A DNA stretch of 39,042 nt, from the sequence record PQ850599.1. One strand, given 5' to 3'. Below, one piece after another: positions 1 to 38,460 of this stretch (positions are counted from its first letter, which is position 1; the number at the start of each line of letters is the position of its first letter). This stretch comes from Escherichia phage CurroJimenez_Bas106. The notes beneath the pieces were generated by a model. The model searched no databases and was not told the DNA's origin. It saw nothing but the letters and a program-made list of their open reading frames with translations. The translations under genes were made by a program, and so were the position numbers.

Positions 1-489
1 ATGGCAGCACCAAAGGGCAACCGATTTTGGGAGGCCCGCAGTAGTCATGGGCGAAACCCTAAATTCGAATCGCCTGAGGCGCTGTGGGCTGCTTGTTGTG
101 AATACTTCGAGTGGGCTGATGATAACCCGCTATGGGAGGGTAAGGTATTTTCATATCAGGGAGAAATAATTAAGGCTAATGTCCCTAAGATGCGAGCCAT
201 GACTATTTCAGGATTGTGTACCTTCCTTGATATCACCAGGCAAACATGGGGAACCTTCCGGTCAATGGAAGGTTTTTCTGACGTCACATCACGAGCGGAA
301 GACATCATCTACGACCAGAAATTTTCTGGCGCAGCCGCTGACCTTCTCAACGCTAACATCATCGCCCGTGATTTGGGCCTCAAAGAGCAGTCGCAAGTTG
401 AAGACGTGACACCTGATAAGGGAGATCGCGATAAGCGGCGCTCTCGTATCAAGGAGCTATTCAACCGTGGAACTGGACGCGATTCTTGA
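1..489 (+). CDS. terS: terminase small subunit (P22 gp3-like)
   Basis: 162 aa ORF starting at window position 1; length and N-terminal sequence match my recollection of P22 gp3; 23-nt overlap with terL; RBS-like GTGAGA lies at the window end (39031-39036). Confidence 0.85.
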
Positions 490-1966: not shown

Positions 1967-4132
1967 ATGGCCGACGAAAACAGACTCAATTCCATTCTGT
2001 GTAAGTTTGACGCAGACTGGATGGCGAGCGATGAAGCCAGAACCGAGGCGACAAATGACCTGTATTTTAGCCGAGTGTCGCAATGGGATGACTGGCTATC
2101 AAACTACACCACCCTGCAATATCGAGGACAATTCGATGTTGTCCGCCCGGTGGTCAGGAAACTGGTCGCAGAGATGCGCCGGAACCCTATCGACGTTCTC
2201 TTCCGACCCAAAGACGGCGCTAATCCTGATGCTGCCGATGTGCTGATGGGGATGTATCGTACTGATATGCGCCATAACACGGCAAAAATTGCCGTTAACG
2301 TTGGCGTTCGTGAGCAGATAGAGTCCGGCGTTGGTGCATGGCGTCTGGTCACCCAGTACGAAGACAACAACCCAACAAGCAACAATCAGGTAATCCGACG
2401 CCTGCCAATCCATGAAGCCTGCTCACACGTCATATGGGACGCCAACAGCAAGCAGATGGATAAGAGCGACGCTAAGCACTGCACGGTGATTAACGCTTTG
2501 TCACGCAATGGCTGGAAAGAGTTCGCAGAGGATTACGGTATTGATCCTGACACCTTGCCATCTTTCCAGAATCCGAACGATACATGGCTGTTTCCGTGGG
2601 TATCGAATGATGTCGTCTACGTCGCTGAGTATTACGAGGTCGAAGAGAAGAAAGAGAAAGTCTTCATCTACCGCGACCCGCTGACAGGTGAGCCGGTCAG
2701 CTATTACCAGCAGGATATCAAAGACGTCATCGACGACCTGGCTAATCGTGGATTCATTAAGGTAGCAGAGCGCAAGGTGAAGCGTCGGCGTGTGTATAAG
2801 TCGATCATCACCTGCACGCAGATACTGAAAGACCGCGAGAAGATAGCCGGAGAGCATATTCCAATCGTTCCAGTGTATGGCGAATGGTCATTCGCTGGTG
2901 ACAAGGAGTGCTACGAAGGAGTGGTAAGGCTGACGAAAGACGGTCAACGCCTTCGTAACATGATCATGTCGTTCAACGCCGATATTGTTGCTCGTTCACC
3001 GAAGAAGAAACCGACCTTCTTCCCTGAGCAAATCGAAGGCTACGAATACATGTACGGTGGAAATGATGACTATCCGTACTATCTGCAGAACAGGACCGAT
3101 GAAAACGGTAACGACCTGCCGATTGGTCCAATCTCCTACATGGAAAACCCTGAAGTGCCGCAAGCCAACGCTTACATGCTTGAGGCTGCCACCAACGCAG
3201 TGAAAGAGGTGGCTAGTCTTGGCGTGGATGCGCAGGCGGCAAATGGTCAGGTCGCTTTCGATACCGTCAATCAACTGAACATGCGGGCAGACCTTGAGAC
3301 ATACGTGTTTCAGGATAACCTGGCTACCGCAATGAGACGTGATGGCGAGATTTATGCCTCAATGGTCAACGATATTTATGACGTTCCTCGTCATGTAACG
3401 CTGACACTTGAAGATGGAAGCGAGAAAGACGTTCAACTCTATGCGCAAGTTGTCGATTACCAGTCCGGCAATGTGGTCACACTCAACGACATTCGTGGTC
3501 GCTATGAGTGCTATACGGACGTTGGGCCATCCTTCCAGAGCATGAAGGAACAGAACCGCGCAGAGATTCAGGAGTTACTCACCAAGGTTCCGCAAGGTAC
3601 TCCAGAGTTCCAGATGCTGATGCTGCAATACTTCACGCTGCTTGACGGTAAAGGCGTCGAGATGATGCGAGAGTACGCGAACAAGCAACTGGTGATGATG
3701 GGGCTGAAGAAACCAGAAACACCTGAAGAGATGGAGATGGTGCAGCAGGCACAACAACAGCCGCAGCAGCCATCAGCAGAGCAAATTCAGGCGCAGGGTA
3801 TCCTTCTGCAAGGTCAGGCTGAATTGCTCAAGGCAGAGAACCAACAGGCGCAGATTCAGGTTGAAGCTGCCAAGGTTGAAGCTCAAAACCAACTCAACGC
3901 CGCGAAGATTGCAGAAATCTTCAACAATATGGACCTCGACAAGCAGGCAGAACTGCGTGAGTACCTCAAGCTCGTAGGTCAATTCCAGCAACAGCGCAGC
4001 AAAGATGCTCGCGCTAACGCTGAGCTGCTTCTTAAAGATGCAGACCAGACTCATTCACAACGCATGGATTTCGCGAATCTTATGCGTCAAGTTCAAATCC
4101 CCTCCGGCGGAGTAGCCGAGACACCTCAATAA
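1967..4132 (+). CDS. portal protein (P22 gp1-like)
   Basis: 721 aa ORF; ATG directly after terL stop, SD ACGGAGA upstream; size and order as P22 portal. Confidence 0.9.
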
Positions 4133-4145
4133 GAGAGAGTTAACC

Positions 4146-5057
4146 ATGGACCAAACCACCGACATTCAGGCTTCTGAAGAATTAACCCTGCCCGGCAATC
4201 ATGCAGCGGCATCTGCTGATGGCTTAGTTGTCGATAATGCCAACGACATCGCAGGTCAGGAAGAAGGCTTCGAGATTGTCCTGAAAGACGATGAGAAACC
4301 AAAACAAGACCCGGCAACTAATGCTGAATTTGCCCGTCGCCGCATCGAACGCAAACGCCAGCGTGAGCTTGAGCAGCAGATGGAAGCGGTTAAGCGTGGA
4401 GAGTTGCCGGAGCACCTGCGGGTGAACCCTGAGTTACCAAAACAACCAGACCCTAACGATTATCTTTCCGAAGATGCGCTGGCTAAGTACGACTATGACC
4501 AGAGCCGCGCACTGGCTGCCTTCCAGCAGGCAAACAGTGAATGGCAGATCAAGGCTATGGACGCACGAAGCCAGGCTGTCGCCGAGCAGGGTCGCAAAAC
4601 TCAGGAGTTCACCCAGCAATCAGCGCAATACGTCGAGGCAGCCCGTAAGCACTACGACGCAGCGGAAAAGCTCAATATCCCTGACTATCAGGAGAAAGAG
4701 GATGCATTCATGCAACTGGTGCCGCCAGCAGTCGGTGCCGACATCATGCGCCTCTTCCCGGAGAAATCCGCCGCTCTCATGTATCACCTTGGTGCTAATC
4801 CTGAGAAAACACGCCAGTTGCTGGCGATGGACGGGCAATCCGCGCTGATTGAACTCACTCGACTGTCAGAACGTTTAACTCTCAAGCCTCGAGCAAAGCC
4901 TGTTTCAGAAGCCCCGTTACCTGATGAACCCATTCAGGGGCACGCTGTTGCTGCAAATATCTCTGCGATTGAAAAGCAGATGGAAGCGGCAGCAAACAAA
5001 GGGGATGTAGAGACGTACCGCAAGCTCAAGGCGCAACTGAATAAAGGAATTCGATAA
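4146..5057 (+). CDS. scaffolding protein (P22 gp8-like)
   Basis: 303 aa, charged helical protein between portal and coat genes; same length as P22 gp8. Confidence 0.85.
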
Positions 5058-6352
5058 TGGCATTAAATGAAGGTCAACTGGTCACGTATGCTCTGGATGA
5101 AATCATCGAAACCGTCCAGAACCTGACGCCAATGGCGTCCAAAGTGACAAAATACACCCCTCCGGCAGAATCCATGCAACGTTCAAGCAACACCGTGTGG
5201 ATGCCTGTTGAGCAGGAAGCGCCAACTCAGACTGGCTGGGATTTAACTGGCAACGCTACTGGGATTCTGGAACTCTCCGTGAAATGCAACATGGGTGATC
5301 CGGATAACGATTTCTTCGAGCTTCGTGCAGATGACCTGCGTGATGAGCGTTCTTACCGTCGCCGCATCCAGGCATCTGCCAAAAAACTGGCGAATAACAT
5401 TGAGTCAGCGATTGCCAAACAGGCAACTGAAATGGGCTCACTTGTTGTTCACGATGCCCGCGCAATTGGTCCATCTACTGGCCTGTCTGGCTGGGATTTT
5501 GTGTCTGATGCAGAGCGCCTGATGTTCTCCCGCGAACTCAACCGCGACATGGGCATCAGTTACTTCCTGAACCCTGACGATTACCGCAAAGCAGGCCGCA
5601 ACCTGGTAGATGGTGACATCTTTGGGCGCGTTCCTGAAGAAGCTTATCGCAACGGTACTATTCAGCGTCAGATTGCTGGCTTTGATGAAATTCTTCGCTC
5701 ACCGAAACTTCCTGCAGTTACCAAGTCAACCGCTACTGGTGTAACTGTTTCTGGTGCGCAGAAGTTTAAGCCGCAGGCATACACCCTTGATACCGATGGT
5801 AACAAAGAGAACGTCGACAACCGTGTTGCAACGGTGACCATATCCTCCACCACCGGATTTAAGCGCGGCGACAAAATCAGCTTCACTGGTGTGAAATTCC
5901 TGTCTCAGATGGCGAAGAACGTGCTGACTGATGATGCGACTTTCTCAATCACCCGTGTGATCGATGGTACTCACATCGAAATCACGCCGAAGCCGATTGC
6001 GCTTGATGACGCTTCACTGACAAAAGAAGAGAAGGCTTACGCTAATGTAAACACCTCTCTTGCTGATGCCACTCCGGTAAACGTTCTGAACGTGGCAACA
6101 ACCACCGCTAACGTGTTCTGGGCTGATGACTCAATCCGCCTGCTATCTCAGCCGATCCCGGTAACCCATGAACTGTTTGCTGGCATGAAAACGTCTTCCT
6201 TCAGCATTCCTGGTATTGGTGTTAACGGCATCTTCGCAACGCAGGGTGATATCAACACGCTGTCTGGTAAGTGCCGTATTGCTGTGTGGTATTCAGCATG
6301 TGCTGTACGACCAGAGGCAATTGGTGTTGGTCTGCCTAACCAGACTGCGTGA
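5057..6352 (+). CDS. major coat protein (P22 gp5-like)
   Basis: 431 aa; start overlaps scaffold stop (TAATG); N-terminus [16 protein letters not shown] resembles P22 coat; followed by a strong terminator. Confidence 0.9.
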
Positions 6353-35974: not shown

Positions 35975-36049
35975 GGGTCAGTCGTATAAAGGTCATTACG
36001 GAAGGCTGTTAACCTTCTTATCGTGGTTCGAGTCCACGCTGTCCCGCCA
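35975..36049 (+). tRNA. tRNA-Asn (anticodon GUU)
   Basis: Hand-folded 75 nt cloverleaf: acceptor GGGTCAG/CTGTCCC (one T-T mismatch), anticodon stem GAAGG/CCTTC, loop CTGTTAA, T-arm CGTGG-TTCGAGT-CCACG, discriminator G, encoded CCA. Confidence 0.7.
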
Positions 36050-36054
36050 AATAT

Positions 36055-36130
36055 GCTGGTTTAGCTCCAATGGTAGAGCAGTCGCCTTGTAAGCGAATGG
36101 GTAGCGGTTCAAGTCCGTTAACCAGCACCA
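36055..36130 (+). tRNA. tRNA-Thr (anticodon UGU)
   Basis: Hand-folded 76 nt cloverleaf: perfect acceptor GCTGGTT/AACCAGC, D-stem GCTC/GAGC, anticodon loop CTTGTAA, T-arm AGCGG-TTCAAGT-CCGTT, discriminator A, encoded CCA. Confidence 0.75.
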
Positions 36131-36372: not shown

Positions 36373-36696
36373 ATGAAGATGCCAGAAAAACATGACCTGT
36401 TAGCCGCCATTCTCGCGGCAAAGGAACAAGGCATCGGGGCAATCCTTGCGTTTGCAATGGCGTACCTTCGCGGCAGATATAATGGCGGTGCGTTTACAAA
36501 AACAGTAATCGACGCAACGATGTGCGCCATTATCGCCTGGTTCATTCGTGACCTTCTCGACTTCGCCGGACTAAGTAGCAATCTCGCTTATATAACGAGC
36601 GTGTTCATCGGCTACATCGGTACTGACTCGATTGGTTCGCTTATCAAACGCTTCGCTGCTAAAAAAGCCGGAGTAGAAGATGGTGGAAATCAATAA
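36373..36696 (+). CDS. S: holin S (lambda-type, dual-start S107/S105)
   Basis: 107 aa [34 protein letters not shown]..., near-identical to lambda S including the Met1-Lys2-Met3 dual start. Confidence 0.95.
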
Positions 36697-37156
36697 TCAA
36701 CGTAAGGCGTTCCTCGATATGCTGGCGTGGTCAGAGGGAACTGATAACGGACGGCAGAAAACCAGAAATCATGGTTATGACGTCATTGTAGGCGGAGAGC
36801 TATTCACTGATTACTCTGATCACCCTCGCAAACTTGTCACGCTAAACCCAAAACTCAAATCAACAGCCGCCGGGCGCTACCAGCTTCTTTCCCGTTGGTG
36901 GGATGCCTATCGTAAGCAGCTTGGCCTGAAAGACTTCTCTCCGAAAAGCCAGGACGCTGTGGCATTGCAGCAGATTAAGGAGCGTGGCGCTTTACCGATG
37001 ATTGATCGCGGTGATATCCGTCAGGCAATCGACCGTTGCAGCAATATCTGGGCTTCACTGCCGGGGGCTGGTTATGGTCAGTTCGAGCATAAGGCTGACA
37101 ACCTGATTGCAAAATTCAAAGAAGCTGGCGGAATGGTCAGAGAGATTGAGGTATGA
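36680..37156 (+). CDS. R: endolysin R (lytic transglycosylase, lambda-type)
   Basis: 158 aa [34 protein letters not shown]..., near-identical to lambda R. Confidence 0.95.
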
Positions 37157-37590
37157 GCAGAGTAACCGCGATTATCTCCGCTCTGGTTATCTGCATCATC
37201 GTCTGCCTGTCATGGGCTGTTAATCACTACCGTGATAACGCCATCGCCTACAAAGAGCAGCGCGATAAGGCCGCATCCACAATTGCTGACATGCAGAAGC
37301 GTCAACGTGATGTAGCAGAACTCGACGCCAGATACACAAAGGAGCTTGCTGATGCTAACGAGACTATCGAAAGTCTCCGTGCTGATGTTTCTGCTGGTCG
37401 TAAGCGCCTGCAAGTCGCCGCCACCTGTGCAAAGTCAACGACCGGAGCCAGCGGCATGGGCGATGGAGAAAGCCCAGGACTTACAGCAGATGCTGAACTC
37501 AATTATTACCGTCTCAGAAGTGGAATCGACAGGTTAACCGCGCAGGTTAACTACCTGCAGGAATACATCAGGACGCAATGCCTTCGATGA
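37153..37590 (+). CDS. Rz: spanin, inner-membrane subunit Rz
   Basis: 145 aa; N-terminal TM helix then coiled coil; lambda-Rz-like N-terminus; overlaps R stop. Confidence 0.85.
37346..37537 (+). CDS. Rz1: spanin, outer-membrane lipoprotein subunit Rz1 (embedded in Rz, +1 frame)
   Basis: 63 aa; lipobox LVVSAC followed by Pro-rich mature region; fully embedded in Rz as in lambda. Confidence 0.75.
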
Positions 37591-37765
37591 TAGCGATAAT
37601 TTTACTCATCATCCTTCACATCTGGCTCTGTAGACAGGGTGGTGATCACTTCTGGAGTGAATCCAGATTAAACATCTCATTGCTGATGCTTGATATTGAG
37701 CATCTGGCGCGCGGTAAGGGGCTGCGTTGAGATAAGAGCCAGTTCATTACAAATACCAGGATTTA

Positions 37766-37790
37766 GCCTCGCATTCGCGGGGCTTTTTAT
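37766..37790 (+). terminator. rho-independent terminator downstream of Rz
   Basis: GCCTCGC-ATTC-GCGGGGC hairpin (one G-U pair) followed by TTTTTAT. Confidence 0.6.
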
Positions 37791-37932
37791 ATCTGAATTT
37801 CACAGCGCATCTCACGCGCATATTAACGAGAGCCTTTCAGTAAGCGAGCCTGAGAAATGCCGTTATAGGTGGCGACCTCTCTCGGGCGGCTTTTCTGTGA
37901 GACAGGCTCACTTTCTAAAAGGTAAAGACGCT

Positions 37933-38460
37933 ATGAATCATCAATTGGCTAATCTCGATTTCCGGGACATGGTGGTTGTTTCTGGTGATCGCGTGATCAC
38001 AACCTCCCGCAAGGTAGCAGCTTACTTCGACAAGCAGCATCACCACATCATTCAGAAAATCGAAAAGCTAGACTGTTCGGATGAATTTCTAACCAGCAAC
38101 TTTTCGCGGGTTACCTATGAACACAAGGGTAATCAGTATGTTGAATATGAAATTTCCAAAGACGGCGCGATGTACATCATCATGTCGTTTACCGGCAAAA
38201 AAGCTGCCGCCATCAAAGAGGCGTTTATCAAAGCATTTAATTGGATGCGTGACAGGCTGATGGAGATGGCTCACTCATACCAAAGAGAGCACAACGAGTT
38301 AATGCTGGAGTTCATGAAGGAAAAGGATGTTGCCAGTATGTCAGGACGCTTGCTGAACCGCTGGGGCAGGATCAAAAAACCGCAACTCATAGCAAGAATC
38401 GAAAGGCTTGAGCAGCAGGCGCAAATATCGATCCCCGGACTTCCAGTCAGGCGGCGCTAA
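37933..38460 (+). CDS. rha: Rha-family phage regulatory protein
   Basis: 175 aa from ATG 37933; LANLDFRDMVVVSGDRVITTSRKVAAYFDKQHHHIIQKIEKL resembles Rha-domain proteins; same position as P22 rha; the ORF-track 5' extension crosses a terminator. Confidence 0.6.
   Translation: MNHQLANLDFRDMVVVSGDRVITTSRKVAAYFDKQHHHIIQKIEKLDCSDEFLTSNFSRVTYEHKGNQYVEYEISKDGAMYIIMSFTGKKAAAIKEAFIKAFNWMRDRLMEMAHSYQREHNELMLEFMKEKDVASMSGRLLNRWGRIKKPQLIARIERLEQQAQISIPGLPVRRR

Follow-up and report, generated by a model that had tools for sequence, protein, structure and literature searches.

The window, i.e. the whole 39,042-bp stretch of DNA that was analysed, is the complete genome of a P22-like (Lederbergvirus) phage of E. 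coli, and the record starts at the ATG of the small terminase gene terS. The final 182-604 nt of the window continue straight into the terS ATG in 21 related loci, indicating that the window is a complete genome that was opened at terS by convention. The genes at its left end, in order, and two tRNA genes near its right end are as follows.

1-489, + strand: terS, small terminase of the P22 gp3 family (162 aa), with a candidate pac site within its own coding sequence
467-1966, + strand: terL, large terminase (499 aa), homologue of P22 gp2 (93% identity, no gaps)
1967-4132: portal, following terL in the gene order
4146-5057: scaffold, adjoining the coat gene
5057-6352: coat, 73% identical to P22 gp5
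35975-36049, + strand: tRNA-Asn(GTT)
36055-36130, + strand: tRNA-Thr(TGT), upstream of ORFs at 36680-38460

No identical phage was found among deposited phages, the best match being Dewey (96.4% over 74% of the first 25 kb). Phage Louie has an HNH endonuclease gene (5058-5585, opposite strand) between its scaffold and coat genes, and the window scaffold gene (4146-5057) meets the coat gene (5057-6352) directly, without such an insert. The two tRNA genes are neighbours located between ORFs (35975-36130, + strand). As a proxy for the start of packaging, the record starts of related phages are uninformative; those in the records checked are set by convention, at either terS or pac.

At the DNA level, terS has 99% identity to its counterparts in the E. 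coli phages EC.P3, Louie and IME10, versus 85.5% to gene 3 of Salmonella phage P22. Its product matches the crystal structure of P22 gp3 (3P9A) over its full length (residues 1-162; E = 1e-90), and residues 104-162 are identical to P22. The start of terL overlaps the 3' end of terS by 23 nt, likewise in P22. TerS and TerL are orthologues of P22 gp3 and gp2, and so the terminase cognate to a P22-type pac site is present. Compared to P22, terS is a mosaic of three pieces: nt 1-114 are 98.2% identical, nt 115-305 are 64.9% identical, and nt 306-489 are 98.9% identical. Within the diverged block, TerS residues 39-101 have 56% identity to the P22 protein. This pattern suggests that recombination swapped only the central portion of terS, which is the portion predicted to carry pac.

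The exact TerS protein allele of the window is very common: among the 80 best matches in IMG/VR (of 505 confirmed), 75 are 100% identical and the other five are 99% identical, and many of the 505 confirmed matches are prophage contigs derived from isolate genomes. A TerS 100% identical to the window allele is also encoded by a 9.7-kb contig (JAUVQU010000080.1) of a metagenome-assembled genome labelled 'Cellvibrionaceae bacterium', which is probably a mis-binned enterobacterial phage contig.

The pac site of P22 is a sequence of 22 bp, gaagatttatctgaagtcgtta, located inside gene 3 (Wu et al. 2002, as cited in PMC9611059, PMC8022706 and PMC11260489). The same sequence is quoted in a feature note of NC_013059, and pac is annotated at nt 4-25 of NC_002371 and at terS nt 268-289 in both EU570103 and NC_013059. 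The terS gene of the window could be aligned without gaps with those of P22, epsilon34, g341c and L, which places the following features within it.

115-305, + strand: mosaic block where terS has diverged from P22 (64.9% nt identity, with flanks of 98-99%), holding the site at 268-289 and residue 91
219-338, no strand assigned: predicted zone of series-initiating terminase cuts, ~120 bp centred on the candidate pac by analogy with P22
268-289, + strand: positional homologue of the 22-bp P22 pac, GAAGGTTTTTCTGACGTCACAT, comprising codons E90 G F S D V T96 and the first base of S97
269-285, + strand: candidate 17-nt pac core, AAGGTTTTTCTGACGTC, based on a regular expression match, PWM score and synonymous identity
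298-319, + strand: 22-mer flagged in the first-pass annotation, which is conserved coding sequence (E100-K107, terS codons 100-107) and not pac-like

The candidate at 268-289 is inside terS, at the homologous place and on the coding strand, as is P22 pac. It is identical to P22 pac at 15 of 22 positions overall and at 14 of 17 in the core. The raw Hamming match to the 22-bp sequence was rejected as a detector of pac, as the 15/22 of the candidate is tied by four unrelated sites in the window. Identity over the full 22 bp, including the right arm (GTCGTTA), was not found: nt 286-289 are ACAT, versus GTTA in P22. The weight to be given to identity of the right arm is doubtful, and the host pac-like sites that are used by P22 have no conservation past the TC either (flanks in Table 1 of PMC11260489).

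Two descriptions of functional sites were applied to the window. The regular expression AA[GC][AG][TC][AT][AT][ATC][TC][TC]T[GT][ACG][ACG][ACG]TC, from the host pseudo-pac sites of P22 (PMC11226127), has exactly one match on both strands of the 39 kb, at 269-285 (+ strand), where 0.08 matches would be expected. A PWM was constructed from nine host sites at which P22 packaging was found to start by sequencing of capsid DNA, together with the native pac (PMC11260489, Table 1). With this PWM the stretch at 269-285 scores 25.1 bits, higher than all ten of the training sites (17.8-23.6 bits, of which native P22 pac has 23.6), the next site in the window scores 13.2 bits, and the maximum over 100 shuffled genomes was 20.4 bits. 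No base of the window core is shared, at its position, by fewer than 4 of the 10 functional sites. Four pac-wobble mutations that cripple P22 pac are at core positions 2, 5, 8 and 11 (PMC11260489); the window core is wild-type at three of these (2, 5 and 11) and has an allowed T at position 8. The same paper also has a precedent, the plasmid pET28a-terS, for packaging of a plasmid through a cloned site.

Homologues of terS came from three sources: 61 loci in genomes sampled at one per species, 80 loci in IMG/VR, almost all of which are the window's own allele, and phage records. Their codon alignment was reduced to 44 non-redundant sequences with less than 92% nucleotide identity. Synonymous-codon identity was calculated as the fraction of pairs with the same codon among those sharing the amino acid. 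In these 44 homologues it is 0.84 for codons 90-95, versus 0.45 gene-wide. This is the highest value among the 157 six-codon windows of the gene, of which the five best all overlap the candidate pac, and so the DNA itself is under selection there. Codon 90 is GAA, CAA or AAA in all 41 sequences that have a two-fold NAR codon at this position, and never NAG; the other 3 of the 44 have GAT or AAT. Among the remaining NAR codons of the same genes, NAA accounts for 45%, giving a naive probability of 5e-15 for codon 90 that ignores phylogeny and shared ancestry; the contrast between codon 90 and the other codons is internally controlled, being drawn from the same sequences. Nucleotide 273 is a pyrimidine in every homologue, codon 92 is TTT in 29 sequences versus TTC in one, and codon 95 is xTC in 44 of 44; the third positions at nt 270 and nt 285 are essentially invariant. 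These constrained synonymous positions coincide with those that never vary in the functional consensus (AAG-R-Y-TT ... TC). Thus, 268-289 is under purifying selection at the nucleotide level across the terS family, and this constraint is an independent confirmation, from sequence only, of the critical pac positions that were established genetically in P22.

The signal is weaker when only alleles of the window type (EGFSD; 81-88% nucleotide identity) are considered. In these, the site is kept as GAAGGYTTTTC(T/G)GAC(R)TCAC, and the 9 nt before it are scrambled. Codons 90-95 have a synonymous identity of 0.76, compared with 0.41 in the remainder of the diverged block, and rank only 13th because the C-terminal block has become near-identical through recent recombination. 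Among 50 unique sequences of the window's own allele there are 41 variable positions, none of which is in 253-290; this is not significant, as ~1.8 would be expected and the probability of finding none is ~0.15. Pairwise identity between the window and P22 was also considered as evidence for a conserved island and was rejected: the core has 15 of 18 positions identical versus 65% for the block, but a stretch beginning at nt 121 has 17 of 18. In distant, including alpha-proteobacterial, prophage homologues (Rhizobium, Mesorhizobium, Brucella and Paracoccus), with ~50-60% protein identity, AAG-R-Y-TT ... TC is kept synonymously and nt 277-282 in the middle of the site are freely variable. The pac core may long predate the P22-like phages.

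The stretch at 268-289 agrees with a P22-type pac site in its position, its fit to the functional consensus, its cognate terminase and its constraint at the DNA level, and differs from P22 pac in lacking identity over the full 22 bp. From homology, the match to the functional motif and the signatures of selection, it is predicted that 268-289, with its core at 269-285, is probably the functional pac site of this phage. A site of the pac type is an expected feature of the P22-like phage family, although no pac annotation was found in the records closest to the window (Louie, IME10, EC.P3 and Emek).

The first-pass annotation had placed a candidate pac site slightly downstream, at 298-319. The string in question, GAAGACATCATCTACGACCAGA, is present there on the + strand inside terS, and encodes E100-D-I-I-Y-D-Q-K107. 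As a general idea, a pac site within terS, some 270-300 nt from its start, is well supported, but the coordinates and the sequence match were wrong, the candidate homologue being at 268-289. The position of P22 pac had been taken as ~300 nt into terS, which is wrong by 30 nt, as it is annotated at nt 268-289 of gene 3. The supposed sharing of a GAAGA...ATCT core with P22 pac is at chance level: GAAGA-N(0-6)-ATCT occurs twice in the window, both strands included, versus 2.4 +/- 1.6 occurrences expected. Compared with the published sequence gaagatttatctgaagtcgtta, as had been proposed, 298-319 matches at only 10 of 22 positions without gaps, and 292 other 22-mers of the window match P22 pac at 12 or more of 22. 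With the PWM of functional P22 pac sites, no 17-mer around the flagged stretch exceeds 2.1 bits, versus 17.8-23.6 bits for real sites. The stretch also has no match to the regular expression of the 17-nt consensus, which it fails at core positions 9, 12 and 16. Its GAAGA and ATCT are separated by 4 nt instead of 3, and it is without the TG and TC found invariably in the functional pac-like sites of P22.

That 298-319 is itself the recognition site, being located in terS close to the position of P22 pac and containing both GAAGA and ATCT, is hardly credible. It is well conserved in P22 (19 of 22 positions shared), but the P22 equivalent reads GAACAGGTCATCTACGACCAGA, which is not the pac site of P22, and the conservation is accounted for by coding, because the 98.9%-identical 3' block of terS begins with this stretch. 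It belongs to a conserved coding block, AEDIIYDQK, that includes the family-wide motif IYDQK. Its codons have an unremarkable synonymous identity of 0.56-0.60 in the 44 homologues, and its third codon positions are free to vary: across the family at nt 300 (A in 17, G in 24), 303, 306 and 312, and within the window's own allele, which has synonymous variants at nt 309 and 315.

A further alternative is that TerS of the IME10/window type has a shifted or different specificity, forming a packaging-specificity group apart from P22, such that 268-289 is read differently (for example through a need for G272, T276, C282 and the right arm ACAT) or another sequence is recognized at some other place. 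In its favour, TerS has only 56% identity to P22 over residues 39-101, the site departs from P22 pac at 7 of 22 positions with the differences fixed within the allele, and residue 91 is Gly rather than Asp. Codon 91 is also the only one at which the record of the high-transducing (HT) mutant HT105/1 int-201 (MN161573, marked UNVERIFIED) departs from P22 gene 3, through a single base, G271A; a search of the literature for HT105 gave no match. However, G271A converts AAG to AAA in pac, with loss of the invariant G, as well as Asp91 to Asn, and so the phenotype need not reflect residue 91. The HT phenotype might result from the damaged pac, instead of or besides the altered protein, and the HT105/1 record was rejected as a locator of specificity residues because the change is inside pac, where effects on the protein and on the site are inseparable. 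At host sites, the P22 terminase itself tolerates all three of the core differences between the window and P22, and the functional consensus is approached more closely by the window core than by P22 pac. The constrained positions AAG-R-Y-TT and TC are retained synonymously in either allele type and also in distant relatives, which speaks for a common ancestral read-out. On the PWM, the rest of the genome has no site above the shuffle background, although the matrix is blind to an unrelated motif. A shifted specificity is therefore considered unlikely. A particular form of it, namely a second packaging-specificity class in the P22 gp3 family consisting of the IME10/window-type allele with Gly91 and the site GAAGGTTTTTCTGACGTCAC, with co-variation of protein and site around the ancient AAG-R-Y-TT...TC core, is a speculative and rather improbable proposal. 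The IME10/window-type allele of terS is common in E. coli prophages and, if the proposal were true, the pair of alleles would be a natural system for finding the residues of TerS that read pac, where in vitro binding with P22 failed.

The preferred reading, that 268-289 is pac, predicts the course of packaging by homology with P22. In P22, the cuts that initiate a packaging series are made in a ~120-bp region centred on pac (PMC11260489; PMC11226127), packaging runs downstream of pac in its written orientation (PMC11226127; PMC11260489), and later cuts are headful and sequence-independent (PMC8022706; PMC9611059); in vitro work has yet to demonstrate that P22 TerS binds pac oligonucleotides directly and specifically (PMC9611059). 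In the phage of the window, the TerS ring and TerL would recognize the asymmetric site at 268-289 on concatemeric DNA. TerL, the presumed nuclease and ATPase, would cut near pac and package rightward, making its first cut within ~60 bp on either side of the site, a zone that includes 298-319. Located 9-30 bp to the right of the candidate recognition site and 30 nt downstream of the homologous position, the flagged stretch is probably inside the predicted ~120-bp cutting zone, where it may be cut, but it is not the sequence recognized. Packaging would proceed from terS to terL to portal by a headful mechanism, and the products would be circularly permuted, terminally redundant chromosomes. By analogy with P22 we infer the use of the site by the phage's own TerS, the positions of the cuts, the direction of packaging and the size of the headful. 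The head capacity of P22 is ~43.4 kb (as quoted in PMC10345575) and, given coat proteins that are 73% identical, we infer a terminal redundancy of ~4.4 kb (11%) if the head of this phage holds the same amount.

Initiation might instead be imprecise or not site-specific, spread over hundreds to thousands of bp with no discrete pac, as in Sf6, which is P22-like, and ES18, both of which initiate over wide regions (PMC11260489; PMC3896407). This is very unlikely: the TerS types of Sf6 and ES18 are unrelated (that of Sf6 has 12% identity to P22; PMC9611059), whereas TerS and TerL of the window are orthologues of P22 gp3 and gp2, and the site is under selection at the nucleotide level. No end-mapping or PhageTerm data for IME10, Louie, Dewey, Huey, E212 or the window-type terS allele were found in the searchable literature, and IME10 is absent from PMC3896407.

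The placement of pac at 268-289 on the + strand, with packaging rightward, aids the annotation of the abundant P22-like phages of E. coli, the prediction of which host genes flanking their prophages are moved by lateral transduction, and the use of the 17-nt consensus to look for pseudo-pac sites in E. coli. The core looks fully acceptable to the P22 terminase, and so E. coli phages of the window type and Salmonella phage P22 may share packaging specificity, which would be relevant to cross-packaging and to the engineering of transducing particles. None of these findings would surprise a specialist.

The candidate was compared with known pac sites. The closest system is P22 itself, of which the pac site has the same position in the gene (nt 268-289) and the same orientation, and is accompanied by orthologous TerS and TerL. 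The two sites have in common the invariant core positions (AAG, TT, T-G, TC), and differ by seven substitutions, which are A272G, A276T and A282C together with the change of the right arm from GTTA to ACAT, such that the encoded peptide is EDLSEVV in P22 and EGFSDVT in the window. The window site also differs in being within a diverged mosaic block of terS, in belonging to a phage of E. coli rather than Salmonella, and in being known from sequence alone. Phages epsilon34, g341c and L have an annotated pac, GAAGACTTATCTGAGGTCGTTA, that was also assigned by homology at terS nt 268-289 (PMC8022706); however, it is 2 nt from P22 pac and their TerS proteins are ~96% identical to that of P22, whereas the site and TerS of the window are far more diverged.

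Phages Sf6, ES18 and SPP1 resemble the window candidate in that their headful packaging begins in or near terS, but their TerS families are unrelated to that of the window, their pac regions have no sequence similarity to the candidate, and initiation involves far larger regions or multi-part sites (pacL/pacC/pacR). More similar in sequence are the pseudo-pac or pac-like sites for P22 on the Salmonella chromosome (PMC11226127; PMC11260489), as the window core fits the same degenerate 17-nt consensus, differing at three positions from host site 6 (AAGACTTTTCTGACATC) and at two from site 4 in purF (AAGGTTTATCTGGCGTC). Those Salmonella sites are fortuitous host sequences that drive generalized transduction, whereas the candidate in the window is the phage's own, in its native gene context.
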